64,000 bases of DNA from Candidatus Humimicrobiia bacterium (GTDB lineage Bacteria; Actinomycetota; Humimicrobiia; JAHJRV01). This document shows, one piece after another, positions 9,305 to 61,184 of the stretch. Below the pieces are notes generated by a model that saw only the letters and a program-made list of their open reading frames with translations, was not told the origin of the DNA and did not search any database. The DNA lies in contig JBARXA010000018.1 in assembly GCA_049647085.1 (NCBI GenBank), forward strand, positions 25,677 to 89,676. Direction: 5' to 3'. Made by a program: the position numbers and the translations under genes. Positions within the stretch are counted from its first letter, which is position 1. Each line of letters opens with the position of its first letter.

Positions 9305-9321
9305 CTAACTCAGTTTAATGA

Positions 9322-10121: not shown

Positions 10122-10263
10122 TTTTAGACTCCTTTCTATAAATTTAAAAAAATAGACTATTTAATTGAATCTGTTTTAAGTTTGATCTACTTTCTATTAA
10201 TTTAAAATAAGATTAATACTTATTTAATAAAATCTCTTTTCAGAATGATATTTTATAAAATTT

Positions 10264-11304: not shown

Positions 11305-11406
11305 AATTTCTCCAATATTTTTAGTGATATTGTAAGTACTTTATTTTTATTTATATTCTATAAGTATGGACTGAACCCCTAACACTGGACACATTGTATA
11401 TTAAAA

Positions 11407-19546: not shown

Positions 19547-19548
19547 TT

Positions 19549-31430: not shown

Positions 31431-32483
31431 TTGATGATAGAGAAAATGAAAGCAATAATAAAAAGAGAGAGTAAACCAGGAGCAGAGCTTGAAGTTGTAG
31501 ATATTCCAAAAATTAGTCTTAATGAGGTTTTAGTAAATGTAAAAGTAGCATCAATATGCGGTACCGATGTTCATATCTATAAATGGAATGAGTGGGCACA
31601 AAATAGAATTAAACCACCTCTTATTATAGGTCATGAATTTGCGGGAGAGGTTGTGGAAGTTGGAACTGATGTTAAATCTTTAAAAGTTGGTGATTTCGTA
31701 TCTGCAGAAACACATATTCCTTGCAATCAGTGCTTCCAGTGTAAAACGGGAAAACAACATATTTGCAAAAATGTCTCAATTTTGGGAGTCGATATAAATG
31801 GAGTTTTTGCAGATTATGTAGCTCTTCCTGAAGTATGTGCATGGAAAAATTCTGATAAAATACCATTTGAATTTGCATCAGTTCAGGAACCCTTGGGTAA
31901 CTCTGTTTATGCAACTTTGGAAGGTGGAGGTGTTACAGGTAAAAAAGTGGTAATTTTTGGTTGTGGACCAACTGGTCTATTTGCAGCAGGAGTTGCAAAA
32001 GTTTCAGGAGCATCAGAAATAATATCTGTTGGAAAGCACGAATTCAGAATGGAAATTGCTAAAAAGATGGGAGCTGATCATATATTGAAATATCCAGATG
32101 ACAATATTGTAAAATTAATAACAGAAATTACTGATGGAGAGGGAGTAGATGTAGTTATTGAAATGACAGGTAGTCAGGATGCTATAAATCAAGGCCTTTC
32201 AGTTTTAAAAAAAGGAGGGAGATTTACAGCGTTTGGTATTCCTTCAGGAAAGGTTGAAATAGATCTTGCAAATGATATTATTTTTAAGGGAGCTGTTGTT
32301 ATTGGAATATCCGGGAGGAAGATGTTTGACACTTGGTATAGAGTTGCTGGACTACTTGAATCAAGGCGGATTGACATATCTCCTGTTATTACACATAAAT
32401 TTCCTTTGGAGGAGTTTAAAAAAGGCTTTGAGCTAATGATGTCTGAGGAGAGAAAAGCAGCAAAAATATTATTATTTCCGTAA
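31431..32483 (+). CDS. tdh: L-threonine 3-dehydrogenase (Zn-dependent)
   Basis: CGTDVH, GHEFAGEVVEVG, CNQCFQCKTGKQHIC and GCGPTG are present. It pairs with kbl downstream. Confidence 0.85.
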   Translation: MMIEKMKAIIKRESKPGAELEVVDIPKISLNEVLVNVKVASICGTDVHIYKWNEWAQNRIKPPLIIGHEFAGEVVEVGTDVKSLKVGDFVSAETHIPCNQCFQCKTGKQHICKNVSILGVDINGVFADYVALPEVCAWKNSDKIPFEFASVQEPLGNSVYATLEGGGVTGKKVVIFGCGPTGLFAAGVAKVSGASEIISVGKHEFRMEIAKKMGADHILKYPDDNIVKLITEITDGEGVDVVIEMTGSQDAINQGLSVLKKGGRFTAFGIPSGKVEIDLANDIIFKGAVVIGISGRKMFDTWYRVAGLLESRRIDISPVITHKFPLEEFKKGFELMMSEERKAAKILLFP

Positions 32484-32530
32484 AATATCATTTTAAAATA
32501 AAAATAATGTATTAATAGGAGGTGTTGTAA

Positions 32531-33709
32531 ATGAGTCACCACATGAAATTTTTGGATGAAGCTCTTGATAATTTAAGGAAAAATAAAATATTCCGAGAGC
32601 TTACAGTTATAGAGGGAGCCCAAGGTCCAAGAGTGAAAATAAGAGGAAAGGAAGTAATAAATTTATCATCAAACAATTATTTAGGTCTTAATACCCATCC
32701 TAAATTAAAGGAAGCTGCTCTAAAAGCCATAGAGAAATATGGAGTAGGTTCTGGAGCAGTTAGAACTATTGCAGGTACATTAGATATTCATAAGAAAGTA
32801 GAGGAAAGAATTGCAGAGTTTAAAAATACAGAAGCAGCAATACTTTTCCAATCAGGGGAACTTGCTAATCAAGGAACAATTCAATCCATAATGGGTAAAG
32901 ATGATGTAATATTTTCTGATAGACTTAATCATGCAAGTATCATAGATGGTTGTAGACTAAGTAGAGCAGAAATTAAAGCTTATCCTCATAAGGATATGGA
33001 AGTCCTTGAAAATTTACTCAAGGAGTATAAAGGAACTGGGAAAAAGCTGATTGTATCCGATGGTGTATTCAGTATGGATGGTGATATATGCCCACTACCA
33101 AAGATTGCTGAGTTAGGGGAGAGATATGGCGCAATAACTATGGTGGATGATGCTCATGCCAGTGGAGTATTGGGCAAGAACGGTAGAGGAACAGTTGATC
33201 ACTTTAATTTGCATGGAAGAATTGATATACAGATGGGAACTCTTTCTAAAGCAATTGGTTGTATGGGAGGATATATAGCAGGTTCTAAATCGCTAAGGGA
33301 TTATCTCATCCATTTTTCAAGACCATTTTTATTTAGCACGTCTCATCCACCAAGTGTCCCAGCATCAATCTTGGCAGCAATAGATGTATTGGAAAATGAA
33401 CCAGAAATATTAGATATTCTCTGGTCAAATGTTTCATTTTTCAAGCAGGGATTAAAGAATTTGGGATTTGATACAGGTATAAGTGAAACACCTATTACAC
33501 CTGTTATTGTGGGAGAGGCTTCAATAGCTGTGAAGATGAGTGATATACTTCTTGAGGAGGGCATATTTGGACAAAGTATAGGTTTTCCTACAGTTCCGAG
33601 AGGAAAAGCGAGAATAAGAACAATTGTAACAGCTGCTCATACAAAAGATGACCTTTCCATTGCTTTAGAGAAGTTTGAGAAAGTTGGAAAAAAATTAACT
33701 ATAATTTAA
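32531..33709 (+). CDS. kbl: 2-amino-3-ketobutyrate CoA ligase (glycine C-acetyltransferase)
   Basis: This alpha-oxoamine synthase fold has SNNYLGL and PLP-Lys GTLSKA. A tdh-kbl operon is inferred. Confidence 0.85.
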
Positions 33710-33747: not shown

Positions 33748-33796
33748 GTAAGGCTTTAGCCTTGCTTTAAAAGTAACCCTGAAGGGTTGTCCTACT
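33748..33796. repeat. palindromic REP-like element, copy 1 (two internal hairpins AAGGCT/AGCCTT and AACCCT/AGGGTT)
   Basis: GTAAGGCTTTAGCCTTGCTTTAAAAGTAACCCTGAAGGGTTGTCCTAC lies right after the kbl stop. It is near-identical to 46918-46970. Confidence 0.6.
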
Positions 33797-33807
33797 TTTA
33801 TGGAAAT

Positions 33808-34992
33808 ATGAAAAAAATGAGTAAAGTTGCAATTGTAAAATGTGAAAATTATGAAGAAGATGTAGTAAAAAAAGCAGTAGAAAAATCCATAAATTTATTA
33901 GGTGGAATTTCAAATTTTATAAATGAAAAGGATAAGGTATTTATAAAACCGAATCTTTTAAGAGCAAGTTCTCCAGAGAGTCTGATAATAACTCATCCTG
34001 CTTTAATTAAATCAGTTGCAAAACTTGTTAAAAATTTGGGTGCTGAAGTTACTATTGGAGATAGCCCTGGTGGTAAATTTACAAAAAATTCTCTCTCTAA
34101 AGTCTATAAAATTTCTGGATTAACAGATGTTTCAAAGGAAACTAGTGCTAAGCTAAATTGGAATACAAATTACTCTACTAAATCTAATCCTGAAGGTAAT
34201 ATTGTCAAATCTTTTGAGATAATAAATATAGCCTCCAAAGCAGATAAGATTATTTCTATTTCTAAGTTAAAAACCCACGGTTTCACTTATATAACTGGGG
34301 CTGTAAAAAACTTATTTGGATTAGTACCAGGTCTTAAAAAAATTGGATTTCATACAAGGTTTCAAAATGTAGACCATTTCTCACAAATGTTGCTTGATCT
34401 ATATATTTTAACAAAACCAGCACTCAACATAATGGATGCAGTAATTGCAATGGAAGGGAGCGGACCATCAGCTGGTGATGCTAAGAAAGTAGGATTGATA
34501 CTAGCAAGTGATGATGCAGTCTGTTTGGATTTAGTTGCAACCTATGCTATAGGTGTAAATCCATTGAAAGTACCAACTCTAAAAGCTGCTATAGATAGAG
34601 GTATGATTAGTGGAAAGATTAGTGATATAGATATTGTTGGAGAAGATATAAATTCAGTAAGAGTATTAGATTTTAAACCACCTCCAACTGAGAGAAGGGA
34701 TTATTGGTTTTATCCACCAGTTATTCGCAAATGGGCTATAAGAAATTTAAACTTAACACCTATTATTAAATCAAATTGCATTGGTTGTGGAGTTTGTATA
34801 AAAAATTGCCCGGTAAATGCTATAAAGTTAATATCAATAAATAAAATGTCAAAGGATAAAGATGTAAAGAAAAAAGCAAATATTGATTTAAAAAAATGTA
34901 TTAGATGTTATTGCTGCCACGAACTGTGTCCGGAAAAAGCAGTGGGATTAAAAAAACCTTTCCTTTTAAAAATGATTTCATTAAAATCCTAA
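33808..34992 (+). CDS. DUF362-domain protein with C-terminal 2x[4Fe-4S] ferredoxin domain
   Basis: The C-terminal motifs are CIGCGVCIKNCP and CIRCYCCHELCP. The listed TTG start (33787) lies inside the repeat element, so ATG 33808 is preferred. Confidence 0.6.
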   Translation: MKKMSKVAIVKCENYEEDVVKKAVEKSINLLGGISNFINEKDKVFIKPNLLRASSPESLIITHPALIKSVAKLVKNLGAEVTIGDSPGGKFTKNSLSKVYKISGLTDVSKETSAKLNWNTNYSTKSNPEGNIVKSFEIINIASKADKIISISKLKTHGFTYITGAVKNLFGLVPGLKKIGFHTRFQNVDHFSQMLLDLYILTKPALNIMDAVIAMEGSGPSAGDAKKVGLILASDDAVCLDLVATYAIGVNPLKVPTLKAAIDRGMISGKISDIDIVGEDINSVRVLDFKPPPTERRDYWFYPPVIRKWAIRNLNLTPIIKSNCIGCGVCIKNCPVNAIKLISINKMSKDKDVKKKANIDLKKCIRCYCCHELCPEKAVGLKKPFLLKMISLKS

Positions 34993-36403: not shown

Positions 36404-36784
36404 ATGCCATATAGCAAAATAGTTATGGATCATTTTTTAAATCCACGAAATGTGGGAGAAATAGACAATGCTGATGGAATAGGGGAAGTTGGTAACCCTA
36501 TTTGTGGTGATATTATGACTTTTTATATAAAAGTAAAAGATAATAAATTAGAGGATATAAAATTTAAGACTTTTGGGTGTGGAGCTGCAATAGCTGTTTC
36601 TTCTATTGTTTCTGAAACTGCAAAGGGTATGAGTTTAGAGGAAGCTGAAAAAATAACAAATAAAAAAGTAGCTGAAATGTTAGGAGGTTTACCACCTCAG
36701 AAACTTCATTGTTCTAACTTAGGAGCAAAAGCATTAAAAAAAGCTATTGAAAACTATAGACTTCTTTCTTCGGGACCATCATAA
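36404..36784 (+). CDS. NifU/IscU-type Fe-S cluster assembly scaffold
   Basis: HFLNPRNVG...GNPICGD...FKTFGCGAAIA...LHCS carries the three conserved Cys. Confidence 0.8.
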   Translation: MPYSKIVMDHFLNPRNVGEIDNADGIGEVGNPICGDIMTFYIKVKDNKLEDIKFKTFGCGAAIAVSSIVSETAKGMSLEEAEKITNKKVAEMLGGLPPQKLHCSNLGAKALKKAIENYRLLSSGPS

Positions 36785-37536
36785 ATTATTTGATCAAGCG
36801 GCACAGCTTTGAAAGGTTTTTCTCTTTCTTCCTGTTCAATTGCGTGAGCAACTAACCCGGCTGCTCTTGATACAATATAAAAACCCTTACCATATTTATA
36901 AGGAAATCCCATATCTGATATGATAGATGCAATTGCTCCATCTACATTTAGAATTATTTTTTTATTTAAAATATTTTTAATAGATTGCTCAATCTCAGAT
37001 ACTAGCTTACAATGCCCTCCATAAATTTTGAGATCTTTTGCTAATTTTAATAATTTCTTAGTTCTTGGATCGGATTTATGGTATGGATGTCCAAATCCTA
37101 ATATTCTTTTCTTTTGTAAATGATGTTTTTGCACAATTTCATTTGCTATTTGTGATAAAGTTTTATTTAGCCTTTCGCTTTCTTCTATTCCTTCTTGGAG
37201 AATCTTTGCACATCCTTCTATAGAGCCACCATGATATTTACCCAATGCTATAATGCCTGATGCTACACTCGCTTGTAGGGGAACACCTGATGATGCTACA
37301 AATCTTGTTGCATCTGCTGATGGAGCTGCTAAGCTATGATCGCAGCCTGACACTAACATTGCATTCATCATTTTACCCTCTTCTTTAGTAGGAAATTTCC
37401 CCATCCATAGAAGATATACAACTTCCCCAAAACTCTTTTTTCCTATAATTTTATCTAAAGCATAACCTCTAATTATGATTTTGTTAGGTTCAACTTTGGA
37501 TATAGCTGTTCTCCACTCAAATTTCTTCTCTTTCAT
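36754..37536 (-). CDS. short citrate-synthase-fold protein (citryl-CoA lyase / ACL-alpha C-terminal domain-like)
   Basis: The 260-aa protein has a citrate-synthase signature-like GFGHPYHKSDPR. The catalytic-region His is in SGCDHSLAAPSADATRFVASSG. This is the size of the Hydrogenobacter-type Ccl. Confidence 0.6.
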   Translation of the reverse strand: MKEKKFEWRTAISKVEPNKIIIRGYALDKIIGKKSFGEVVYLLWMGKFPTKEEGKMMNAMLVSGCDHSLAAPSADATRFVASSGVPLQASVASGIIALGKYHGGSIEGCAKILQEGIEESERLNKTLSQIANEIVQKHHLQKKRILGFGHPYHKSDPRTKKLLKLAKDLKIYGGHCKLVSEIEQSIKNILNKKIILNVDGAIASIISDMGFPYKYGKGFYIVSRAAGLVAHAIEQEEREKPFKAVPLDQIIYDGPEERSL

Positions 37537-37576
37537 TTTCCCTCCTGAAAATCAAGAGCTTTTACATTTAAATTCT

Positions 37577-37816
37577 CTAATATAATTTTTTTATAGTGAT
37601 TGCTTTTTGAGGACATTTTTCTAAACAAAGATTACAAAATACGCATTCATCTTCATTTTCCTCAATAATTGAAATTATTCCATTATTCTCTTCTAATTTT
37701 TCAAATTTAAAAATTTCAACAGGACAAACCTCTTCACATATTTTACAATTTTTAACTTTTTTACATTTATTATTATTAATTTCTACTTTTACAAACATTC
37801 CCATAATTTTCACCAT
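37577..37816 (-). CDS. 2[4Fe-4S] ferredoxin (79 aa)
   Basis: The Cys motifs are CKKVKNCKICEEVCP...CVFCNLCLEKCP. Confidence 0.7.
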   Translation of the reverse strand: MVKIMGMFVKVEINNNKCKKVKNCKICEEVCPVEIFKFEKLEENNGIISIIEENEDECVFCNLCLEKCPQKAITIKKLY

Positions 37817-37831
37817 AAAAATAAAATATTT

Positions 37832-38728
37832 TTAGCTTAATGATTCTTTGACATAATCAACTAATTGAGTTAGTGTATCCGCTACCAATACGCCAGCTCT
37901 TTTAAATGCTTCAATTTTTCCTTTAGCTGTTCCCTTTCCTTTTTGCACAATGACACCAGCATGTCCAAATCTCATTCCAGGCATCTCATCAACAAATCTT
38001 CCACCTATAAAAGCTATTATAGGTTTAGAATATGAATACTTTAAAATATAACTTGCTGCGTCTTCTTCTTGTGTACCACCCGGTTCACAAAAAAGTACAA
38101 CGGTTTTTGTTTGAATATCTTTTTCAAAAAGAGGAAGCAGTTCTCTAATTGTCATACCCACAATTGGATCTCCACCAACACTGATGCATGTACTTTGCCC
38201 TATCCCATTACTGGTTAATAAATTTGCAAGCTCTGTTGTCATTCCACCACTGGTAGAAGCAATTCCAACTGGACCTATCATATATGATTTTTTTGTTTCG
38301 ATTTGTGGTCCGCCAATAGCTCCAACCTTAGATTTACCAGGTGAAATTATTCCTAATGAGTTTGGTCCTATAACTTTTGTACCTTTTTGTTCTGCAAAAT
38401 CTAAAATCAAAACTACATCTTTTTTTGGGATTCTCTCAGTAAAAATTACAATAAGCTTTATATTTGCGTCTATTGCTTCTAATGCAGCATCTTTTGCAAA
38501 GGGAGGAGGAACAGATATAATTGATACATTTGCTATAAAGTTTTTCACTACATCATTAACACAATCAAAAACAGGGATTCCATGAATAGTCTGTCCTCCT
38601 TTTCCTGGAGTTACACCACCAACCACATTAGTACCATAATCAAGCATATATTTAGTAAATAATGATGCTTCTCTCCCTGTAATTCCCTGAACCAAAACTC
38701 TTATTTTCTCATCTATTAAAATACTCAA
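37832..38728 (-). CDS. NDP-forming acyl-CoA synthetase alpha subunit (SucD / CcsB-like, CoA-binding, phospho-His)
   Basis: VLVQGITGREAS (CoA-binding Rossmann) and the phospho-histidine loop MRFGHAGVIV are present. Confidence 0.8.
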   Translation of the reverse strand: MSILIDEKIRVLVQGITGREASLFTKYMLDYGTNVVGGVTPGKGGQTIHGIPVFDCVNDVVKNFIANVSIISVPPPFAKDAALEAIDANIKLIVIFTERIPKKDVVLILDFAEQKGTKVIGPNSLGIISPGKSKVGAIGGPQIETKKSYMIGPVGIASTSGGMTTELANLLTSNGIGQSTCISVGGDPIVGMTIRELLPLFEKDIQTKTVVLFCEPGGTQEEDAASYILKYSYSKPIIAFIGGRFVDEMPGMRFGHAGVIVQKGKGTAKGKIEAFKRAGVLVADTLTQLVDYVKESLS

Positions 38729-38776
38729 TTAATTCTCCATTTATAAAAAAATAAATCAATCGTTTATTATCTTTAA

Positions 38777-39970
38777 TTAGGAAATCATTTCTACTGCTGC
38801 TTTTGCAGCTTGATCTATAGAATAACTCCTATCCATATATTTTATTTTGTATTTTTTAAGAATTTTGTATCCATCCTCTTCATATGCACCTGCACTTCTA
38901 AATAAAACTGGATATTCACTTAGGTTTATATCTAATTCAACCATTGCTAAAATTACCCCTCTAGCTACTAAGTCCACTCTTGTGTTATTTAAAACATTAG
39001 TTATAACTGCTAATCCTTTTATGCCTGGTTTTTTTAGAATCAGTTTTGTTAGTTCTTTTACTTTCTTAACTGTAGGGTTACCACCAATTTCACAATAATT
39101 TGCTGGTTTTCCACCATGATATCTTATAGCATCAAAGATAGTAAGGGATGCCCCACCTCCTCCGATTAATAATCCCAAATCTCCATCAAACTCAACAACT
39201 CTGCCTGCAACACCTCTGTGGTCAATCTTATCAATTTTTTCTGCTTCTATTTCAAACTTTGTGGGAATTCTTGGGCTATCTTTCCTGATTGGTATTCCTA
39301 ATTGCTCTAATTCTTTATGTCTATAAAGAGCTTCCTGTTCAAGTTCTAAATGGGCATCTGCTGCAATTAACTTTCCATCTTGAGTCAATATCAAAGGATT
39401 TATTTCTGCTAAATCACAATCATATTTTTTAAAAATATTAAATAATTTAACAGCAATACCTGCAGCCTTAAACATATCTTTTGATTTCAGCCCCATATTT
39501 TTTGCAAGTAATTTTCCTTGATAGTTTTGAATTCCCCAGATCATATTAACAGGTAAAGTAAAAACCTTTTCTGGATATTTTTTAGCTATTTCATTGATGT
39601 CAATACCACCAAGAGAAGATGAAATTATTACAGGAGTTTTTTGAGATAGGTCATAAGTTATTCCAAGAAAAAGCTCAGAAGATGGAAACAGTCTTTCTTC
39701 TACTAAAACCTTTCTTACTTCAAATCCCTTTATTCTTAATGAAAATATCTTTCTTGCTAATTGCCTTGCCTCTTTGGGGTTTTTTGCAAATGATATTCCT
39801 CCAGCCTTTCCTCTACCAGTAGCTAAAACTTGAGCTTTTATAGCAACTTCTTTTTTAAGATTATCTGCAATCTTTTCTACTTCACCTGGAGTTGAAGCTA
39901 AGTAACCCTCGGGTATAGAGATAGCCTCTTTTTTAAATATAATTTTGCTTTCATACTCATATAATTTCAT
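38777..39970 (-). CDS. NDP-forming acyl-CoA synthetase beta subunit (SucC / CcsA-like ATP-grasp)
   Basis: MKLYEYESKIIFKKEAISIP...KAQVLATGRGKAGGI carries the ATP-grasp motifs. It has the 397-aa SucC size. Confidence 0.8.
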   Translation of the reverse strand: MKLYEYESKIIFKKEAISIPEGYLASTPGEVEKIADNLKKEVAIKAQVLATGRGKAGGISFAKNPKEARQLARKIFSLRIKGFEVRKVLVEERLFPSSELFLGITYDLSQKTPVIISSSLGGIDINEIAKKYPEKVFTLPVNMIWGIQNYQGKLLAKNMGLKSKDMFKAAGIAVKLFNIFKKYDCDLAEINPLILTQDGKLIAADAHLELEQEALYRHKELEQLGIPIRKDSPRIPTKFEIEAEKIDKIDHRGVAGRVVEFDGDLGLLIGGGGASLTIFDAIRYHGGKPANYCEIGGNPTVKKVKELTKLILKKPGIKGLAVITNVLNNTRVDLVARGVILAMVELDINLSEYPVLFRSAGAYEEDGYKILKKYKIKYMDRSYSIDQAAKAAVEMIS

Positions 39971-40040
39971 TAATTACTCAATCCTTTATTTTATAAGATA
40001 TTATCTTAAGGCTTGCCATTTAATTTATTTTTAATGATAT

Positions 40041-40095
40041 TGCACAGCCTGTCCTTGACCCTTGAGTGTAACGAAGGGGAAGGAAAGGGAGAAAC
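40041..40095 (-). repeat. dispersed ~35-nt motif, copy C (reverse orientation), about 75 nt upstream of the SucC-like gene
   Basis: The reverse complement TTCCCCTTCGTTACACTCAAGGGTCAAGGACA matches 6714-6750 (TTCCCCCTCGTTACACTCAGGGTCAGAATAACA). Confidence 0.55.
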
Positions 40096-40279
40096 TATAC
40101 CCAAAGCTTTCTATGCTTCTTTTTTATTAAAATTTTATTTATATTTTAATCTAAATAAAGGTTAATCAGTATAAAAAATAATTCAAATAATTTTACACGA
40201 AAAATAAATAAATGTAGAATAATAACTAGTTAACTACTATTTAGGGTTTTAAATATTACAATAGGAGGTTATTTTATAA

Positions 40280-40705
40280 ATGGTTGCAAGGAAAAGAAAA
40301 TTAAAAATAGTGCTTGGTGTAATTGGCTCTGATGTTCATGCAGTTGGAAATAAAATACTCGAAAATGTATTGACTGAAGAAGGATTTAAAGTAATAAATA
40401 TTGGAGTTCTCTCCCCTCAAGAGGATTTTATAAATGCTGCAATTGAAACTGCAGCAGATTTGATTGTTGTTTCATCATTATATGGTCATGGTGAAATAGA
40501 TTGCAGGGGAATGAGGGAAAAATGTATTGAAGCTGGAATTGGTGATATCCCATTATATGTTGGTGGAAATTTGGTTGTAGGAAAGAAGGATTTTACTGAA
40601 GTTAAAAAGATTTTTGAAGAGATGGGGTTTAATAGGGCTTATCCTCCTGGAACATCTCCTCAACAATTAATTGATGATATAAAAAAAGATTTTAATAATA
40701 AGTAG
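40280..40705 (+). CDS. glmS: glutamate mutase sigma (S) subunit, B12-binding
   Basis: [16 protein letters not shown]...[34 protein letters not shown] matches clostridial GlmS/MutS nearly motif-for-motif (DxHxxG B12 motif). Confidence 0.9.
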
Positions 40706-40718
40706 GAGATTTTTTATT

Positions 40719-42107
40719 TTGAGAACAGCACTTTTGATTGATTTTGGAAGTACATTTACCAAATTGGTAGCAATAGATTTAGAAAAAGAAATATTCTTAG
40801 GAAGCTCATCTCACCCCACTACAGTAGATGATGATGTGATGATTGGATTTCAAGATGCATTAGATGTATTGAATAAAAAGATATCTAAAAAAGATGAATA
40901 TTATAATTTAAAATTAGCTTGTAGTAGTGCTGCTGGAGGTTTAAAAATTGTAGCAGTAGGCTTAGTTCCTCTCTTAACTTCACAAGCAGCTAAAATTGCA
41001 GCTTTAGGAGCTGGTGGAAAAGTTTTAAAAGTTTACAGCTATAAATTAACTGCAGACGAAAGAGATGAAATTGAAATTTTAAAACCGGACTTAATACTGC
41101 TTTCAGGTGGAACTGATGGAGGAAATGAGAAGGTAATAATTCATAATGCAAAGGTTTTAAGCCAACTAAAGATAGATGTTCCAATTGTTTATGCTGGGAA
41201 TAAATGTTCAGCAACTATAGCAAAGAGAATTTTAAAAGAAAATAAAAAGTCTGTATCGATAATAGAAAATATCTTACCTGAGTTAAATTATTTAAATATA
41301 GAACCAGCTAAAGAATTAATAAGAAAACTCTTTCTATCAAGTATAATCAAAGCAAAAGGTCTTTCAAAAAGGATGGATTTCTTATCAAGTGTCTTAATGC
41401 CTACCCCATCAGCTGTTTTAAAAGCTGGAGAATTATTAGCAAAAGGTACAGATAACGAGGAAGGTATTGGGGATTTAATGTTAATTGATGTTGGTGGAGC
41501 TACTACTGATGTTTGCTCATATTCATTAGGACTACCAGGTACAGGTAGTTTTGTTGTAAAGGGTCTTCCTCAACCTTATACAAAAAGAACAGTTGAGGGT
41601 GATTTAGGAATTCGTTTTAGTGCTATGAATCTTTTAAATACAGCCAAAAAGGAAAATTTTATGAAGAAATGGAAAATAAAATTAAAGGACCTGGATAAGA
41701 AAGTTGAAAAGCTATCAAGAAATATTAATTTTATTGCTGAAGACAAGAAAGATATTGAGGTAGATAAGTTACTATCTGCAATATCTACTAAAATTGCAAT
41801 AAATAGGCATGTAGGAAAGTTTCAAACAAAATATACACCAATAGGTCCAGTAAATATTTTATATGGGAAAGATTTAAGAGATGTCCCTACTGTATTAGGA
41901 ACTGGTGGGGGTGTGATAAAAGCTAAGAATCCAAAGTCTATTTTGGAAAAATCTATATTTGATGAAGATGAGTCATACATATTAAAGCCAAAATCTCCAA
42001 AATTTTTATTAGATAAATATTATATAATGTTTGCTGTTGGACTTTTAGCTCAAAAAATGCCAGACTTAGCTTTAAGGTTATTAAAAAAGAATCTCATTTA
42101 TATATAA
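40719..42107 (+). CDS. glmL: glutamate mutase-associated protein L (GlmL/MutL, ATPase-like putative reactivase)
   Basis: This 462-aa protein lies between S and E as in the Clostridium tetanomorphum/cochlearium operons. It has an actin/Hsp70-like fold (DFGSTFTK, GG.K, DVGGATTD). Confidence 0.8.
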   Translation: MRTALLIDFGSTFTKLVAIDLEKEIFLGSSSHPTTVDDDVMIGFQDALDVLNKKISKKDEYYNLKLACSSAAGGLKIVAVGLVPLLTSQAAKIAALGAGGKVLKVYSYKLTADERDEIEILKPDLILLSGGTDGGNEKVIIHNAKVLSQLKIDVPIVYAGNKCSATIAKRILKENKKSVSIIENILPELNYLNIEPAKELIRKLFLSSIIKAKGLSKRMDFLSSVLMPTPSAVLKAGELLAKGTDNEEGIGDLMLIDVGGATTDVCSYSLGLPGTGSFVVKGLPQPYTKRTVEGDLGIRFSAMNLLNTAKKENFMKKWKIKLKDLDKKVEKLSRNINFIAEDKKDIEVDKLLSAISTKIAINRHVGKFQTKYTPIGPVNILYGKDLRDVPTVLGTGGGVIKAKNPKSILEKSIFDEDESYILKPKSPKFLLDKYYIMFAVGLLAQKMPDLALRLLKKNLIYI

Positions 42108-42142
42108 AAATAAAAAATTTAGAATATATTGGGTGGTGAGGA

Positions 42143-43597
42143 TTGGAGATAAAAAATATCAGGTGGGAAGAAGAGGAGTTTCTTAAAAAGAGAAAAGAAG
42201 TGCTAAAGAGCTGGCCAACAGGTTCTCAAGTAGATTTAGAGGAATCGATAAATTATCATAGAGCCATTCCAAAAAACAAAGTTTCAAAATTGGTTCTTGA
42301 AAAGGCAAAAAATGAGGGAAGAACCTTAACTCAACCAAGGGCAGGAGTTGCTTTAATAGATGACCATATTGAACTTCTTCGATTTTTAGAAAAGGAGGGG
42401 ATGGCTGACCTCCTACCAACTACAATTGATAGCTATACCAGGTTAAATAAATATGAGGAAGCTCAGAAAGGAATAGAGGAGAGTATTAGGTTGGGCAGGT
42501 CGATGTTAAATGGTTTTCCTGCTGTAAATCATGGAGTTAAAGGTTGTAGGAAAGTTTGTGAGTCTGTTAATGTACCAGTTGAAGTTCGTCACGGAACTCC
42601 TGATTCAAGATTATTAGCAGAGATAACCTTGGCAGGAGGTTTTACAGATTTTGAAGGTGGAGCCATAACTTATAATATTCCTTATTCAAAAAATGTTCCA
42701 ATTGAGAAAAGTATTAGAAATTGGCAATATGTTGATAGATTAATAGGATATTATCAATATAATGGTGTATCTATAAATAGGGAATCTTTTGGACCCTTAA
42801 CAGGAACTTTAGTTCCTCCATGTATCTCACATGCAGTTTCTATTTCAGAAGCATTACTTGCTGCAGCTCAAGGTGTAAAAAGTATAAGTGTTGGATATGG
42901 ACAATGTGGAAATTTGATTCAGGATATAGCTTCTATAAAATCATTATCAATTATAACAGAGCAGTATCTAAAAGAATTTGGATTTACTGATATTTTAGTA
43001 ACTACAGTATTTCATCAATGGATGGGAGGCTTTCCTCAAGATGAAGCTGAAGCATTTGCTGTAATTTCATGGGGAGCAGCAGCTGCTGGTCTTGGAGGTG
43101 CAACAAAAGTTATTGTAAAAACTCCACATGAGGCATATGGTATTCCTACTAAAGAAGCAAATGCTCTTGGGCTTAGAGCAACAAAACAGATTTTAAATAT
43201 GGTAAAAGATCAGAAGCTAACAGAAATTGAGTTGATTGAAAAAGAGATTGATATCATAAAAGAGGAAACAAAGTCAATTTTAGAAGCTGTATTGAATTTA
43301 GGAAAAGGTGATATTGCTATTGGTCTGGTAAGAGGATTTGAAGCAGGAGTAATTGATATTCCATTCGCTCCGAGTCGTTTTACCAAAGGAAAAATAATTC
43401 CAGTAAGAGATAATAATGGTTCCATCAGATTACTGAATGTTGGAAATCTACCTTTCTCAAAAAAAATAAGAAATTTTCACAAACAAAAGTTAGAGGAAAG
43501 AGGAAAAGCTGAAAATAGGAAACCATCATTTAAAATGGTAGTGGATGATATATATGCTATAAGCAGAGGTTATTTAGTTGGAAGACCAGAAAAATAA
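42143..43597 (+). CDS. glmE: glutamate mutase epsilon (E) subunit
   Basis: The 484-aa TIM-barrel subunit directly follows glmL. Its size and position are canonical. Confidence 0.85.
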
Positions 43598-43654
43598 ATT
43601 TTTATTAACTTTAAAAAATTTGATAACTTTATTAGAAGGGGAGGTTAATAAATA

Positions 43655-44890
43655 ATGAAAATAAAAAAAGTAGTTGCTTCAAAGGGATTTGCAGGTTTCT
43701 ATTATGATGATCAAGCAGCTATAAAATCTCATGCAAAACATGATGGATTCGCCTATTCAGGAGAACCTATTACTCCAGGCTTTAGTACAATAAGGATTGC
43801 TGGTGAAAGCATTTCAGTCATGTTAGTTTTGGATGAAGGTAGAATTGCATATGGTGATTGTGTAGCTGTTCAGTACTCTGGAGCAGCTGGTAGAGATGCA
43901 CTTTTTTTAGCTGATGATTATCTTCCTATTATAAATGAAAAAATTGCACCATTAATGGTTGAACGTGAGATAGAAAATTTCAAGAATATGGCTGAAGAGT
44001 TAGATAATTTAAAAATTGATGGGGAACGATTACATACTGCACTTCGATATGGAATAACCCAGGCTATTTTGAATGCTGTTTCAAGAAAAAAGCATATTAC
44101 TATGGCTGAGGTAATATCCCAGGAATATGGTATAGAAATTCAAGAGGAACCAGTTCCAATATTTGCTCAGAGTGGGGATGATAGGTATAACAATGCAGAT
44201 AAAATGATAATAAAAGGAATTCAGGTTCTTCCTCATGGACTGATAAACAATGTTGAAGAGAAGTTAGGTAGGAGAGGGGAGAAATTAATGGATTATCTAT
44301 CATGGCTTAGAACAAGAGTGGTTCAATTAGGTAAACCTGATTATAATCCTGTATTTCATCTTGATGTTTATGGAACATTTGGACAGGCATTTAATAATGA
44401 TATGGGAACAATTGCAAAATATATCATGAACTTAGAACGGATCTCTCAACCATATCATCTCAGGATTGAGGGACCTGTTGATGCAGGAAGTAAAGAAGGC
44501 CAGATAAAATCTATGCGAGAGTTAAGAACAGAATTAAAGAAAATAGGAAGTAAGACTGAAATAATAGCTGACGAGTGGTGTAATACATTTGAGGACATTA
44601 AAGACTTTGTACATGGAGAGGCTGCTGATATGATTCAGATTAAGGCTCCAGATTTGGGAGGAATAAATAATACTATAGAGGCTATTTTATTTTGTAAGAA
44701 ACATGGTGTGGGAGCGTATCTTGGTGGAAGTTGTAATGAAACGGATCGTAGTGCTCGAATATGTGCTCATATAGCTTTAGCAACAGGACCATGTCAGATT
44801 CTTGCAAAACCTGGGATGGGAGTAGATGAGGCTGTGATGTTAATAAACAATGAGATGCAAAGAACTCTTACACTTATAAAAAATAGATAA
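43655..44890 (+). CDS. mal: methylaspartate ammonia-lyase (beta-methylaspartase)
   Basis: It aligns end-to-end with C. tetanomorphum MAL: GFAGFYYDDQAAIK...GESISV.LVL..G...GDC.AVQYSGA.GRD, QIKAPDLGG and KPGMGVDE. Confidence 0.9.
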   Translation: MKIKKVVASKGFAGFYYDDQAAIKSHAKHDGFAYSGEPITPGFSTIRIAGESISVMLVLDEGRIAYGDCVAVQYSGAAGRDALFLADDYLPIINEKIAPLMVEREIENFKNMAEELDNLKIDGERLHTALRYGITQAILNAVSRKKHITMAEVISQEYGIEIQEEPVPIFAQSGDDRYNNADKMIIKGIQVLPHGLINNVEEKLGRRGEKLMDYLSWLRTRVVQLGKPDYNPVFHLDVYGTFGQAFNNDMGTIAKYIMNLERISQPYHLRIEGPVDAGSKEGQIKSMRELRTELKKIGSKTEIIADEWCNTFEDIKDFVHGEAADMIQIKAPDLGGINNTIEAILFCKKHGVGAYLGGSCNETDRSARICAHIALATGPCQILAKPGMGVDEAVMLINNEMQRTLTLIKNR

Positions 44891-45064: not shown

Positions 45065-45445
45065 TTGGATTTTCCAGAAGAACTTTATTATTCAAAAGAC
45101 CATGAATGGGCGAAAATTGAGGGAAATATAGTAATTGTGGGAATAACCGATTATGCTCAGGATGCATTGGGAGATATAGTATTTTTAGAACTTCCACCAG
45201 TTGGTACAGAAACCCAGGTTCATGTGCCATTTGCAACAATTGAATCAGTAAAATCAGTTTCAGATGTATACTCACCAGTAACTGGTAAAATAGTGGAAGT
45301 AAATGATGCTATTACAGATGCACCTGAAGTGATAAATCAGGATCCATATGGTGGGGGTTGGATGGTTAAAATTGAGATGAATAACCCAGATGAGATAAAA
45401 GATTTAATATCTGCTGAGGAATATCAGAAATCTACAGAAGAATAA
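45065..45445 (+). CDS. gcvH: glycine cleavage system H protein
   Basis: YSKDHEWAKIEGN is present. The lipoyl-Lys context is ESVKSVSDVYSP. The start is TTG with a strong RBS GGAGGGAGG. Confidence 0.85.
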   Translation: MDFPEELYYSKDHEWAKIEGNIVIVGITDYAQDALGDIVFLELPPVGTETQVHVPFATIESVKSVSDVYSPVTGKIVEVNDAITDAPEVINQDPYGGGWMVKIEMNNPDEIKDLISAEEYQKSTEE

Positions 45446-45559
45446 AAGCAGCAACAGAAACAACCTGAATAAAAAACATCTTCTAAATTTATTTATTTAA
45501 AGTAGATTAAATTTTTAATATTTATTTTTTAATATTAGGGAATTATTAATATATAGCAT

Positions 45560-46909
45560 ATGGATTACACTCCACATTCTAATAAAGAAATCAAGGAAAT
45601 GCTCTCTTTTTTGGGGATAAAATTTTTGAAGGATTTGTATAATAATATTCCAGACAAAATTAAACAAAAAAAAGAGCTAAAATTACCTGAACCATTAAGT
45701 GAAATTGAGCTTTTAGGAAGGTTAAAATTTATAAGTAAAAAAAATATAAGTACAGATAATAAAATTTCATTTCTTGGAGCAGGTAACTATGATCACTTTA
45801 TACCTTCTGTTGTAAATTACATAATCTCCAAACCAGAATTTTATACTGCTTATACTCCATATCAGTCAGAATTAAGTCAGGGAATTTTACAATCCATGTT
45901 TGAGTATCAGACAATGATGTGTGAATTAACTGGCATGGATATCTCTAACATCTCACTTTATGATGGTGCAACTTCTGTTGCAGAAGCTGCAAATATGGCT
46001 ATATCTATAAATAAAAAGAAAAAAATCTTAATATCAGAAACTATGCATCCAGAATATCGTCAAGTACTAAAAACCTATATGAAGCCAAGAAAAATAGAGG
46101 TTTTTGAAATTCCTATGAAAGATGGTATTACTGATAAGGGGCAAATAAAAGAAAATTTAATAGATGAGTATTCATGTTTAATAATTCCTCAACCAAATTT
46201 TCTTGGGAATTTAGAACCCATAGATGAGATATTTTCAATTTTATCGGGTAGTAATACTTTGGCTATCGCTTGTGTTAATCCATTATCTTTAGCATTACTT
46301 AAACCCCCAGCTGATTTTGGAGCCGATATTGTTGTTGGAGATGGTCAAATCTTAGGTAATCCACAATCATTTGGAGGACCATCGTTTGGATTTTTAACTT
46401 GTAAAAAGAAATATTTAAGAAAAACACCTGGTAGAATTGTAGGTCAAACAGTGGATAGTGCTGGAAATATCGGCTATGTTCTCACCCTTCAAACAAGAGA
46501 ACAACATATCAGAAGAGAAAAGGCTACTTCAAATATATGTTCAAACCAATCTCTAAATGTATTAGCAGCTTGTGTTTATCTTTCATATATTGGAAGAGAT
46601 GGTTTATATGAAATTGCAGAACTTTGCTATAAAAATGCTCATTATCTTTTTCAAAAGCTAATAGCTATTAAAGGAATAAACCCAACATTCAATTCTAAAT
46701 TTTTCAATGAATTTGTCGTTTATATTGATTTAGATTCAACTGAATTGAAAAAAATATTATCAAAAAAAGGAATTTTAGGACCAATATGTTTAGAAAAATG
46801 GTACCCATCTCTCAAAAAAAGATACCTTTTTGCTGTTACAGAAAAAAGAACAAAAGATGAGATGGATTTATTAATAGATACATTAAACAAAGCATTAAAG
46901 GTAAAATAA
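45560..46909 (+). CDS. gcvPA: glycine dehydrogenase (decarboxylating) subunit 1
   Basis: The N-terminal half of split P-protein has the fold-type I PLP N-domain and characteristic YTPYQ.E.SQG.LQ. Confidence 0.85.
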   Translation: MDYTPHSNKEIKEMLSFLGIKFLKDLYNNIPDKIKQKKELKLPEPLSEIELLGRLKFISKKNISTDNKISFLGAGNYDHFIPSVVNYIISKPEFYTAYTPYQSELSQGILQSMFEYQTMMCELTGMDISNISLYDGATSVAEAANMAISINKKKKILISETMHPEYRQVLKTYMKPRKIEVFEIPMKDGITDKGQIKENLIDEYSCLIIPQPNFLGNLEPIDEIFSILSGSNTLAIACVNPLSLALLKPPADFGADIVVGDGQILGNPQSFGGPSFGFLTCKKKYLRKTPGRIVGQTVDSAGNIGYVLTLQTREQHIRREKATSNICSNQSLNVLAACVYLSYIGRDGLYEIAELCYKNAHYLFQKLIAIKGINPTFNSKFFNEFVVYIDLDSTELKKILSKKGILGPICLEKWYPSLKKRYLFAVTEKRTKDEMDLLIDTLNKALKVK

Positions 46910-46917
46910 ATTAAATG

Positions 46918-46970
46918 TAGGGCAAGGCTTTAGCCTTGCTTAATAATGCAACCCTAAAGGGTTGCCCTAC
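46918..46970. repeat. palindromic REP-like element, copy 2 (complete, 9-bp outer stem)
   Basis: GTAGGGCAAGGCTTTAGCCTTGCTTAATAATGCAACCCTAAAGGGTTGCCCTAC lies right after the gcvPA stop. Confidence 0.6.
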
Positions 46971-47006
46971 ATATAAAAATATATTAAATTTTAAGGGTTC
47001 TTAAAT

Positions 47007-48458
47007 ATGAATGATAGGTTAATATTTCAATTACTAAATTTAGAAAAAGGTAAGCAAATTTTACCAACTCTATCAGAGGAGATATCTTCTATTAAGCTTT
47101 ATATTCCAAAAAACTTAAAACGTAAAAAAACCCCTAAACTACCACAGATTAGCGAACCACAGTTGATTCGACATTTTGACAAGCTTTCAAAGAAGAATTT
47201 TGGAGTTGATAATGGATTTTATCCATTAGGTTCATGCACTATGAAATATAACCCCAAAATCAATGAAGAGATATCCAGGCTAGAGAATTTTGTCAATATT
47301 CACCCATATCAAGATGAAGAAGATATACAAGGTGCTCTCCAGCTCATGTATGAGCTAGATGTACTTTTATGTGAAATAACGGGAATGGATAAATTTACAT
47401 TACAACCATCAGCTGGAGCTCATGGAGAATTAACAGGTTTATTTATTATAGATGCTTATCATAGAGAAAAAGGAAATAAAAGAAAAAATATAATAATTCC
47501 TGATTCTGCTCATGGAACTAATCCAGCAAGTGTTACAATGGCAGGCTATAATACGGTTACAGTTGATTCGGATGAAAAGGGAAGAGTAGATATAAAAAAA
47601 TTAAGCAAACTTTTAGATGAAAATACTGCAGGATTGATGTTAACAAATCCAAATACACTGGGACTTTTCGATGAGAATATTTTAAAAATCTCTAAAATGG
47701 TACATGATGCTGGTGGATTAGTTTACTATGATGGAGCAAACCTGAATGCAATAATGGGAATAGCTAAGCCAAGAGATATGGGTTTTGACATTGTTCATCT
47801 AAATCTTCATAAAACCTTCTCAACACCGCATGGAGGAGGAGGTCCAGGCTCAGGACCTATTGGAGTGACTAAAGAACTTTCTAAATTTCTTCCTGTGCCT
47901 ACTGTAGAGGTAAATAGTAAAGGGAGATACTATCTTAACTACGAGAAAAAAGATTCAGTTGGTAAAGTAAAAGCTTTTTATGGGAATTTTAATGTTTTAA
48001 TCAAAGCCTATTCATATATTTTATCTTTAGGGGCAAAAGGGTTAAAAAGGGCAAGTCAATTAGCAGTTTTAAATGCCAATTATTTAAAGAAACATTTAAG
48101 TAAATATTATTATCTCCCATATCCAGAGATTTGTATGCATGAATTTGTTATCTCAGCTATCTGGCAAAAAGAAAAGGGAATAAGAGCTTTAGATATTGCT
48201 AAAAGACTAATGGATTTTGGTTTTCACCCACCAACAATTTATTTTCCTCTGATTGTAAAGGAAGCACTCATGATAGAGCCAACAGAAACAGAAAATAAAG
48301 AAACTCTGGATATGTTTATTAAAGCGATGAAACAAATAGCAAAGGAATCAGATAAAAACCCAGAAATTTTAAAATCTGCTCCACATAAAACTCCAATAAA
48401 AAGACTGGATGAGGTAAAAGCAGCAAAAGACCTTATATTAAAATATGATTTTAACTAA
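47007..48458 (+). CDS. gcvPB: glycine dehydrogenase (decarboxylating) subunit 2
   Basis: This C-terminal half of P-protein has PLP-Lys in [18 protein letters not shown]. Confidence 0.85.
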
Positions 48459-60731: not shown

Positions 60732-61184
60732 ATGAGAGGCAGAAAACCAAAGCCTGTAAATTTAAAAATTTTAGAAGGAAATCCAGGCAAAAGACCGTTA
60801 AATTTAAATGAACCAAAACCTCTACAAATAGCTCCAGAATGTCCAGATTGGTTACTTGATGAAGCAAAGAAAGAATGGAATAGGCTTGCTCCAGAATTAG
60901 AAAGGCTTGGATTACTTACAATTGTTGATGAAATGGCTTTTGCAGGACTTTGCCAGAATTACGCAATATATATTGAGATAGAGAAATACCTTGAGGAAAA
61001 TGGAAGAGTAATGAAAACAGAAAGTGGAACTGTCAAATCACGACCAGAAGTTTATATTGCAAACAATGCACTAAAATTTGTTAGATCTTTCGCATCAGAA
61101 TTCGGATTAACACCATCTTCACGGGGAAGGATAAGTTTACCAAGTGAGTTAATAGATGATGAATTTGAAAAATTACTTGATTGA
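60732..61184 (+). CDS. phage terminase small subunit, P27 family
   Basis: The N-terminus MRGRKPKPVNLKILEGNPGKRPLN is the diagnostic P27-family start. The length is 150 aa. Confidence 0.75.
   Translation: MRGRKPKPVNLKILEGNPGKRPLNLNEPKPLQIAPECPDWLLDEAKKEWNRLAPELERLGLLTIVDEMAFAGLCQNYAIYIEIEKYLEENGRVMKTESGTVKSRPEVYIANNALKFVRSFASEFGLTPSSRGRISLPSELIDDEFEKLLD

Follow-up and report, generated by a model that had tools for sequence, protein, structure and literature searches.

The locus described here raises the question of how a methylaspartate route of glutamate breakdown ends where the genes for its closing steps are missing beside those for its opening ones. The window, meaning the whole 64,000-nucleotide stretch that was analysed, belongs to a MAG of Candidatus Humimicrobiia, in the Actinomycetota, and its 3-methylaspartate ammonia-lyase (MAL) matches at 100% identity a protein that NCBI lists under 'MAG: Candidatus Humimicrobiia bacterium'. 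On the plus strand lie glmS (glutamate mutase B12-binding subunit; 40280-40705, NF002612, 217 bits versus a cutoff of 110), glmL or mutL (accessory/reactivating protein; 40719-42107, NF040745, 592 versus 475 bits), glmE (catalytic subunit; 42143-43597, TIGR01503, 754 versus 390 bits) and mal (43655-44890, TIGR01502, 588 versus 286 bits). All four products exceed their NCBIfam equivalog cutoffs, and their identities show a gene set that would convert glutamate to mesaconate. Diverging from this run (40280-44890) across a spacer of 309 bp (39971-40279) is a compact minus-strand operon (36754-39970), which encodes a SucC-like ligase beta subunit (38777-39970, 397 aa; Pfam ATP-grasp_2 and Citrate_bind), a SucD-like alpha subunit (37832-38728, 298 aa; Pfam CoA_binding and Ligase_CoA), a small 2x[4Fe-4S] ferredoxin with two CxxCxxCxxxCP motifs (37577-37816; 79 aa in the longest reading frame, 74 aa in the gene calls of relatives) and a citryl-CoA-lyase-like acyl-CoA lyase of the citrate synthase (CS) fold (36754-37536, 260 aa; Pfam and NCBIfam NF004866). 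The divergent pairing reported in the initial annotation is thus present with the gene content and coordinates claimed. It is set in an amino-acid catabolic island, with tdh-kbl upstream (profile scores of 430 versus a cutoff of 380 bits and 500 versus 460 bits, respectively) and gcvH/PA/PB downstream.

In clostridial clusters of the order glmS-glmL-glmE-mal-mesAB-citDEF-citCXG, mesAB and citDEF are carried together with glm-mal (PMC4682846). The window shares the setting of anaerobic amino-acid catabolism and has the first four genes complete and in the same order, but the MesAB and CitDEF genes are missing at the locus and the ligase/ferredoxin/lyase operon stands in their place. The claim that a class-I fumarase mesaconase of the MesAB or FumD kind and citramalate lyase are missing from the window as a whole is borne out by a Pfam scan of about 50 non-overlapping ORFs of at least 100 aa (overlapping shadow ORFs excluded; a CitD-sized ORF of less than 100 aa would escape), which contain neither Fumerase/Fumerase_C (PF05681, PF05683) nor CitD, CitE or CitF. 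Class-III CoA-transferase (CoA_transf_3), MaoC hydratase and HpcH/CitE domains are likewise absent from these ORFs, as are genes for 2-oxoacid:ferredoxin oxidoreductases (OFOR). In Acetohalobium, a canonical relative (MAL 63% identical), Fumerase/Fumerase_C is found 4 kb downstream of mal. A dedicated mesaconase is nevertheless not required, because housekeeping class-I fumarases are able to hydrate mesaconate (PMC4682846).

The presence of ligase, ferredoxin and lyase genes beside those leading from glutamate to mesaconate suggests a CoA-dependent ending of the fermentation route. The favoured reading, a tentative one that falls just short of being probable, is that the minus-strand operon completes the methylaspartate route in this form. 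An unlinked and probably promiscuous class-I fumarase, its gene not in the window, would hydrate mesaconate to (S)-citramalate; the SucCD-like ADP-forming ligase would couple this C5 hydroxy-dicarboxylate to CoA at the expense of ATP (activation of mesaconate, or regeneration of succinyl-CoA for an unlinked CoA-transferase, being less likely roles); and the CS-fold lyase would cleave (3S)-citramalyl-CoA to acetyl-CoA and pyruvate. By CIP analysis, the (S)-citramalate formed by mesaconase shares the geometry of (3S)-citryl-CoA. The ferredoxin, which is weakly similar to OGOR delta and OorD subunits (33 and 27 bits, both under the cutoffs), may be a legacy partner of 2-oxoacid:ferredoxin oxidoreductases that would accept electrons in the oxidation of pyruvate to acetyl-CoA. 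Its position is constant in bacterial and archaeal modules, the gene lying immediately behind those for the ligase or flanked by the alpha-subunit and lyase genes; its presence is probably explained by the location of the closest ligase homologues with such oxidoreductases.

The coupling of glm-mal to the module is strengthened by its occurrence in a second phylum. In addition to the Humimicrobiia relatives (L001-L004, L012, L013), in which the divergent arrangement is kept with proteins 86-95% identical and flanking genes rearranged, Aerophobetes (L016, L092) carry sucC-sucD-fd-ccl-[P-loop ORF]-glmS-glmE-mal on a single strand as one co-directional operon with tiny or overlapping gene junctions. 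The Aerophobetes and Humimicrobiia ligases fall into different subclades of a neighbour-joining tree, and the MAL of L016 is no closer to the Humimicrobiia MALs (58-59% identity) than to those of Firmicutes (61-62%); therefore the pairing probably arose twice, once in each of these unrelated lineages of uncultured sediment bacteria. Among the 11 module-bearing lineage groups, GlmS, GlmE and MAL are the sole module neighbours common to different bacterial phyla; most module-bearing lineages are without glm-mal, and their modules neighbour a PrpD-like gene, sugar-metabolism genes or amidohydrolases. A domain scan of the Aerophobetes operon found no mesaconase (PF05681, PF05683) and no CitD, CitE or CitF there either. 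The putative pathway requires a mesaconase, and its gene is in neither version of the operon.

The ligase combines an ATP-grasp beta subunit with a CoA-binding alpha subunit bearing a phosphohistidine loop ('FGHAG' in the translation), as in SucCD. With its short (~260 aa) CS-fold lyase, this two-subunit, SucCD-like ADP-forming enzyme resembles the CcsAB/Ccl system of Hydrogenobacter thermophilus (6HXQ, 6HXP), and the succinate loop of SucC, N-I-F-G-G-I-(V/T)-R, is replaced in the window beta subunit by 'NVLNNTRVD', in which 'LNNTRVD' resembles 'ANNTRID' of CcsA (a shared 'NNTR(I/V)D' loop). This CcsA/ACLY-like N-x-T hydroxy-acid loop is retained in the Fd-module ligases; in ACLY this loop holds citrate by its hydroxyl and carboxyl groups. 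Unlike CcsAB, however, the window ligase lacks the second arginine of the RR pair, with 'FRSAG' where CcsA and ACLY have 'VRR(N/G)GP' ('VRRNGP' in CcsA). The equivalent ACLY residue, R379, binds citrate (PMC10593830). Both Arg residues are kept in CcsA (6HXQ_B), the Aquificae-type Ccs (L080, L081, L086, L089), L070 and human ACLY; the second position is S, V, I or G in all Fd-module ligases and in the whole set of best homologues (120/120). In the ligase tree, a rough distance tree that carries no bootstrap values, the beta subunit forms with its relatives a clade of its own (the 'Fd-module' ligase family) apart from CcsA. An Aquificae-type Ccs identity was rejected on these two grounds, and the original label 'Ccs' is wrong: the ligase belongs to a separate family, the nearest members of which lie beside 2-oxoacid:ferredoxin oxidoreductases. 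The missing Arg would fit a hydroxy-dicarboxylate substrate such as (S)-citramalate, because a methyl group there replaces the pro-R carboxymethyl arm of citrate. The residue is missing across the entire family, glm-linked or not, including ligases in operons with Kor-like OFOR and fumarate reductase, for which succinyl-CoA would be the obvious substrate.

The latter operons point to a different function, in which ligase and ferredoxin would serve the organism as its succinyl-CoA synthetase, or as one for acyl-CoA in general, in partnership with a 2-oxoacid:ferredoxin oxidoreductase on a second glutamate branch, from 2-oxoglutarate through succinyl-CoA to succinate and ATP, the lyase having a separate and unrelated role. 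The closest beta subunits outside Humimicrobiia (P0250, 55%; P0268, 52%) are encoded in Fd-OFOR(alpha, beta, gamma)-sucC-sucD-Fd operons with a Kor-like OFOR, and operons of the OFOR-SucCD-like-ferredoxin type in uncultured Chloroflexota and others (L173-L176) share with the window the ligase family (52-55% identity, 'FRSAG') and, immediately downstream of the ligase, the same small ferredoxin; in L175, a TRAP dicarboxylate transporter is followed by the Kor-like OFOR and then by a TfrAB-like fumarate reductase. The top NCBIfam and PDB matches of both window subunits are also SucC and SucD (for the beta subunit, Thermus SCS beta at 218 bits, with CcsA 6HXQ_B at 174 bits). However, both remain under the trusted cutoffs (beta, TIGR01016, 303 versus 376 bits, and a second SucC profile, 296 versus 370; alpha, TIGR01019, 313 versus 353 bits, and a second SucD profile, 309 versus 336), the succinate loop has given way to the CcsA-like one, and where the L173-L176 operons have a Kor-like OFOR but no CS-fold lyase, the opposite is true of the window. 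Furthermore, in many lineages the lyase gene is tightly packed against, or overlaps, those of the ligase and ferredoxin, which argues for a common substrate. On balance, a succinyl-CoA synthetase with an unconnected lyase is distinctly unlikely.

The lyase itself (Pfam Citrate_synt C-terminal domain, E 3e-42) scores 287 bits against the 245-bit cutoff of the 'citryl-CoA lyase' subfamily NF004866, although it does not reach the equivalog NF004864 (205 versus 261 bits), and its top PDB match is the H. thermophilus citryl-CoA lyase (CCL) 6HXP (211 bits). Residues H67, H102, H150, R158, D199 and R224 correspond to pig CS H238, H274, H320, R329, D375 and R401 and are all conserved, with an intact His/His/Asp catalytic triad (H102, H150, D199), as in Ccl; at every residue mapped to the CS oxaloacetate site the protein matches genuine citryl-CoA lyase. 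The proposal that a CS-fold lyase cleaves citramalyl-CoA therefore gains nothing here, there being no visible catalytic or oxaloacetate-site change relative to the H. thermophilus enzyme. After the catalytic His comes a Pro, at the position occupied in CCL and ACL by Arg or Lys (ACLY R976, a CoA contact). To our knowledge, no CS-fold enzyme uses pyruvate. With the lyase triad and the alpha-subunit phosphohistidine motif retained, the enzymes are predicted from their sequences to be competent.

Such conservation, together with the match to Citrate_bind in the ligase, favours a genuine citrate system, in which citrate, ATP and CoA would give citryl-CoA and then acetyl-CoA and oxaloacetate, or the reverse would operate as an ATP-yielding citrate synthase; the adjacency of glm-mal would then stem from shared glutamate/central-carbon metabolism or from chance, and canonical genes elsewhere would handle the C5 product. 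The L115 module also adjoins an OFOR of the PorA type, which is what a reductive TCA cycle would use once citrate has been cleaved. This reading, which we regard as unlikely, must nevertheless accommodate a ligase that lacks the citrate-binding Arg of CcsA/ACLY and does not group with CcsA, the absence of aconitase and isocitrate dehydrogenase near any examined module, and a double linkage to glm-mal, once as a single operon, that it leaves unexplained. Very improbable is a route like the haloarchaeal methylaspartate cycle, in which the ligase would make mesaconyl-CoA and the CS-fold enzyme would cleave the beta-methylmalyl-CoA or citramalyl-CoA formed from it by an unlinked hydratase: haloarchaea do handle mesaconate as a CoA ester (PMC5592240; PMC4682846), and mesaconase is found in neither operon version, but neither a MaoC/enoyl-CoA hydratase nor a CoA-transferase was detected by domain scan in the window or the Aerophobetes operon, and the ligase keeps a loop of the type that binds citrate hydroxyl and carboxyl groups, whereas mesaconate has no hydroxyl. 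Overall, the CoA-dependent citramalate reading is supported in part, by the Aerophobetes co-operon and the missing RR Arg, and is weakened by the CCL-like lyase residues and the mistaken 'Ccs' label.

Compared with known pathways, the proposed CoA-dependent citramalate cleavage would be new in its enzymes rather than its chemistry. In mesaconate use by Burkholderia and in itaconate degradation, (S)-citramalate is converted to (S)-citramalyl-CoA and then to acetyl-CoA and pyruvate (PMC4682846), so the idea of an undescribed pathway variant would hold for the pairing of ligase, ferredoxin and CS-fold lyase with glm-mal, but not for a reaction sequence already known from other enzyme families. 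The chemistry proposed for the window is identical, yet the enzymes are non-homologous: an ATP-dependent SucCD-type ligase is found where those systems use a class-III succinyl-CoA:citramalate CoA-transferase, and a CS-fold lyase where they use a CitE/HpcH-fold (S)-citramalyl-CoA lyase; nor are those systems linked to glutamate mutase and MAL. As its fold is that of citrate synthase and not the HpcH/HpaI (CitE-like) TIM barrel, the window lyase, if it cleaves citramalyl-CoA, would share the function of the known CitE/HpcH-fold enzymes Ccl, Mcl and CLYBL without homology. The haloarchaeal methylaspartate cycle (Glm, Mal, Mct, Mch, Mcl) similarly couples glutamate mutase and MAL to CoA-ester processing of a C5 dicarboxylate, as proposed here, but homologues of its mesaconate CoA-transferase (Mct), mesaconyl-CoA hydratase (Mch) and beta-methylmalyl-CoA lyase (Mcl) are absent from the window ORFs of at least 100 aa, and the window role is likely catabolic instead of acetate assimilation. 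Unlike CcsAB/Ccl, the module has an embedded ferredoxin gene and is partnered by glm-mal or OFOR genes, not by those of the rTCA cycle. The advantage initially seen in conserving the thioester would not raise the net energy yield, since one ATP is consumed in the activation step: with that one spent and one regained from acetyl-CoA, the proposed route would equal citramalate lyase in net ATP, while avoiding an ACP-based lyase complex and delivering acetyl-CoA directly.

The intergenic region (39971-40279) has no Rfam match. Its core, at approximately 40125-40222, is near-invariant in four of the Humimicrobiia relatives (L001, L004, L012, L013), and the remaining spacer is variable or deleted. 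Within this core falls a putative promoter-like site that can be read, by consensus match only, in both directions, as TTTACA-17-TAGAAT on the plus strand (40192-40220) and as TCTACA-17-TAAAAT on the minus strand (40218-40190).

The four methylaspartate genes, glmS (40280-40705), glmL (40719-42107), glmE (42143-43597) and mal (43655-44890, encoding 3-methylaspartate ammonia-lyase, MAL), lie on the plus strand, and each scores well above its NCBIfam equivalog cutoff. Divergent from them across 309 bp, a compact four-gene operon on the minus strand encodes a SucC-like beta subunit (38777-39970), a SucD-like alpha subunit (37832-38728), a 2x[4Fe-4S] ferredoxin of 79 residues (37577-37816) and a protein of the citrate-synthase (CS) fold of 260 residues (36754-37536), whose score is above the cutoff of the 'citryl-CoA lyase' subfamily in NCBIfam. 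Pfam scans of the ca. 50 non-overlapping window ORFs of at least 100 residues returned no class-I fumarase, CitDEF, CoA-transferase or MaoC hydratase. Since these scans and the matching gene calls agree with it, the initial annotation was correct both in its account of the gene content and divergent layout, which the NCBIfam and Pfam scores confirm, and in reporting that mesaconase and citramalate lyase are missing from the window. Recent horizontal acquisition of the ligase/ferredoxin/lyase module was considered and rejected, as its GC content (0.31-0.32) is that of the surrounding sequence in this AT-rich window (ca. 30% GC). At the far end of the module, a NifU/IscU scaffold gene (36404-36784, plus strand) converges on the lyase gene, and the two 3' ends overlap by 31 bp (36754-36784).

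The window MAL has 100% identity to a protein of a 'Candidatus Humimicrobiia bacterium' MAG at NCBI, and the nearest genomes in GTDB bear the label of Actinomycetes MAGs. The divergent pair is kept, despite gain and loss of flanking genes, in Humimicrobiia relatives with 86-95% identical proteins (L001-L004, L012 and L013). In a Candidatus Aerophobetes MAG contig (L016), the ligase, ferredoxin and lyase genes are followed on the same strand by a 294-residue P-loop ORF and by glmS-glmE-mal, with minimal or overlapping gene junctions, and this arrangement recurs in a metagenome contig (L092) whose lyase is 91% identical to that of L016. In a crude neighbor-joining (NJ) distance tree of the ligase beta subunits, the Humimicrobiia protein falls in an 'FRSAG' subclade with L005, L115 and proteins linked to 2-oxoacid:ferredoxin oxidoreductases (OFORs), and the Aerophobetes protein in an 'FRVPG' subclade with L007, archaea and Bryobacterales; the Aerophobetes MAL, moreover, is 61-62% identical to Firmicutes MALs versus 58-59% to those of Humimicrobiia. 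Judged by these sequence relationships, the two pairings are not copies of each other. Across 11 module-bearing lineage groups, GlmS, GlmE and MAL are the only neighbors common to different bacterial phyla. Canonical clusters are built differently: those of clostridia contain mesAB and citDEF (PMC4682846), and in Acetohalobium (MAL 63% identical), unlike in the window, a class-I fumarase of two subunits is encoded 4 kb downstream from mal. The conservation within the lineage, the recurrence in Aerophobetes, the lack of any other shared neighbor and the differing canonical clusters together make a good case for a functional link between the module and the methylaspartate genes. A metagenome scan with the lyase alignment gave no new glm-linked locus and only relatives of at most 53% identity among the matches listed, and no paper was found that links Ccs/Ccl-like (citryl-CoA synthetase/lyase-like) genes to glutamate mutase or deals with methylaspartate metabolism in Humimicrobiia or Aerophobetes.

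The P-loop ORF of the Aerophobetes operon (L016 3873-4757 and L092 3127-4011, both plus strand), situated between the lyase gene and glmS, carries a Walker A motif (GGQGAGKS), belongs to no Pfam or NCBIfam family and has no homologue in the window. It was rejected as a mesaconase on account of this motif and its position where glmL would lie, which makes an accessory NTPase for glutamate mutase, perhaps a new one, more likely. In another NCBI MAG with a MAL 64% identical (L178, 4335-11239), glutamate racemase, glmS, a MurD-like Mur ligase, mutL, glmE and mal are clustered without a mesaconase, which hints at a non-fermentative, perhaps cell-wall related, use of glutamate mutase and MAL.

Both ligase subunits score under the SucC and SucD cutoffs, the distance of the ligase to CcsA (the Ccs large subunit) is about that to succinyl-CoA synthetase (SCS), and the beta subunit forms a clade of its own in the NJ tree. 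Its loop 'N-N-T-R-V-D' resembles that of CcsA and human ATP-citrate lyase (ACLY) and replaces the 'F-G-G-I-V-R' of SCS, and 'FRSAG' stands in place of 'VRR(N/G)GP', with the second Arg missing. This Arg is kept in CcsA, in the Aquificae-type Ccs adjacent to CCL genes (L080, L081, L086 and L089), in L070 and in human ACLY, whereas the window ligase lacks it, as do all of the 120 best homologues. The label 'Ccs' does not fit the ligase, though the CcsA-like loop is present; on its sequence, the enzyme is not an Aquificae-type Ccs. In the 2010 work of Sun and co-workers, ACLY R379 is reportedly engaged in a salt bridge with the pro-R carboxylate of citrate. From our own CIP analysis, the methyl group of (S)-citramalate takes the place of citrate's pro-R carboxymethyl arm, and (3S)-citryl-CoA and (3S)-citramalyl-CoA share the same spatial arrangement. 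R379 is treated as a citrate-binding residue (PMC10593830), and the isomer produced by mesaconase is (S)-citramalate (PMC4682846); a ligase without this Arg is what would be expected of a citramalate-activating enzyme.

The closest match of the lyase is the CCL of H. thermophilus (6HXP, 211 bits), and the CS catalytic triad is conserved together with the Arg and His of the oxaloacetate site. In a comparison with H. thermophilus CCL, Chlorobium ACL, pig CS and ca. 90 homologues, the glm-linked lyases are not set apart by any residue. The equivalents of H238 and R421' are variable even among Aquificae-type CCLs, so that the comparison does not discriminate, and nothing in the lyase sequence points positively to a change of substrate from oxaloacetate to pyruvate. 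Pro151, in place of Arg or Lys, was rejected as a specificity marker, as the corresponding R976 of ACLY makes contact with CoA and not with citrate (PMC10115795).

The best reading of the locus, held tentatively and at somewhat less than an even chance, is that the methylaspartate route has a CoA-dependent ending. An unlinked class-I fumarase, of a class of enzymes known as promiscuous (PMC4682846), would hydrate mesaconate, the SucCD-like ligase would activate the C5 acid, acetyl-CoA and pyruvate would be released by the CS-fold lyase, and the ferredoxin would serve pyruvate oxidation. The net ATP of such a route matches that of citramalate lyase, and 'conserving the thioester', as the initial annotation proposed, thus brings no energetic advantage. 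No paper was found on the association of the module with glm-mal or on a ligase that uses ATP to activate citramalate or a C5 acid akin to it; the same chemistry is known in Burkholderia and in itaconate degradation, with enzymes non-homologous to those of the window. A true citrate Ccs/Ccl system, merely co-located with glm-mal, would suit the CCL-like lyase and its intact oxaloacetate site, and is doubtful given the Arg-less ligase and the recurrent pairing with glm-mal. Activation of mesaconate itself, as in the haloarchaeal cycle, is very improbable, with neither a CoA-transferase nor a MaoC hydratase among the window ORFs scanned.

The wider family, presently annotated as succinyl-CoA synthetase/citryl-CoA lyase, complicates this assessment. 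The module has a wide distribution, which takes in Chloroflexota, Acidobacteriota (Bryobacterales), Tectomicrobia, Archaeoglobi-related (Mnemosynella) archaea and many metagenome contigs, and the ferredoxin and the missing Arg are traits of the whole ligase family, not confined to its glm-linked members. The closest beta subunits outside Humimicrobiia (52-55% identity) belong to Fd-OFOR(alpha, beta, gamma)-sucC-sucD-Fd operons without a lyase (L173-L176, around 7300-14600), whose OFOR is Kor-like; in L175, a TRAP dicarboxylate transporter precedes the OFOR and a TfrAB-like fumarate reductase follows. In this context the ligase looks like a succinyl-CoA synthetase, and in L115 (6855-13277) the lyase-ligase-ferredoxin module is divergent from a PorA-type OFOR. 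These OFOR-linked and mixed contexts imply that ligase and ferredoxin form a common core, complemented by an OFOR in some loci and a CS-fold lyase in others, and the simplest role for the ferredoxin is that of a partner to OFORs. That the window ligase serves an SCS/OFOR branch, with the lyase unrelated, would fit these operons and is unlikely. A broader reading, decidedly unlikely, takes the whole family not as a citrate system but as a ligase and a lyase that, coupled to ATP and freely reversible, act on 2-hydroxy-dicarboxylates such as citramalate or malate. The methylaspartate route would thereby become reversible in Humimicrobiia and Aerophobetes; glutamate could then be synthesized independently of the TCA cycle from acetyl-CoA and pyruvate, by way of citramalyl-CoA, citramalate (with formation of ATP), mesaconate and methylaspartate, with the ferredoxin feeding pyruvate synthase.

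Should the CoA-dependent ending prove true, it would be the third for the methylaspartate pathway, besides citramalate lyase and the haloarchaeal CoA-ester cycle, and would bring the first CS-fold enzyme whose substrate is an adduct derived from pyruvate, as well as the first ligase to activate citramalate, or a C5 acid related to it, with ATP. It would clarify glutamate use by abundant subsurface fermenters (Humimicrobiia, Aerophobetes), and a large, uncharacterized SucCD-like/ferredoxin/CCL gene family, now routinely taken in MAGs as evidence of a reductive TCA cycle, would need rereading. In E. coli O157:H7, too, it is an open matter what becomes of citramalate (PMC4682846).

Database labels for the ligase family range from 'ATP-grasp' and 'acetate-CoA ligase family' to 'succinyl-CoA synthetase beta subunit/citryl-CoA synthetase large subunit'. 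In the archaeal modules, a very divergent MmgE/PrpD-family gene is next, with overlapping genes (L008, L009 and L024, 10788-12098; L010, 10725-12050), and scores only 55 bits against PrpD models with a cutoff of 950; elsewhere the module is surrounded by unrelated genes. A 902-residue neighbor in L025 and L093, a suspected aconitase, proved to be a methyl-accepting chemotaxis protein. In Humimicrobiia, a DUF362 protein whose C-terminal part is a 2x[4Fe-4S] domain (window 33787-34992, plus strand) retains its syntenic place at a few kb from the module, and L007 has another DUF362 protein (18147-19628) at a distance of 8 kb from its module.

Within the divergent spacer, a core around a promoter-like site (40192-40220) is nearly invariant among the Humimicrobiia relatives, the remainder varies, and no Rfam match to a riboswitch or structured RNA was obtained. 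A GC-rich insert of ca. 70 bp (40045-40091) is absent from L013 and different in L001, L004 and L012; it occurs as a single copy in the window, and its predicted folding does not exceed that of shuffled sequence (z = -1.2).

Upstream of the glm-mal locus are tdh (L-threonine 3-dehydrogenase) and kbl (glycine C-acetyltransferase; 31431-33709, plus strand) and downstream gcvH-gcvPA-gcvPB (45065-48458, plus strand), which places the locus within an island for the catabolism of threonine, glycine and glutamate. Near the gcv genes, a single ORF of 1340 residues (51980-56002, minus strand) encodes an unusual fusion of an SHMT domain (ca. 91-449) to a GcvT domain (ca. 908-1283), separated by ca. 450 residues without family assignment. 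Further on, a Terminase_4 gene (phage terminase small subunit; 60732-61184, plus strand), followed by ORFs without a family match, suggests that the window ends in the remnant of a prophage.
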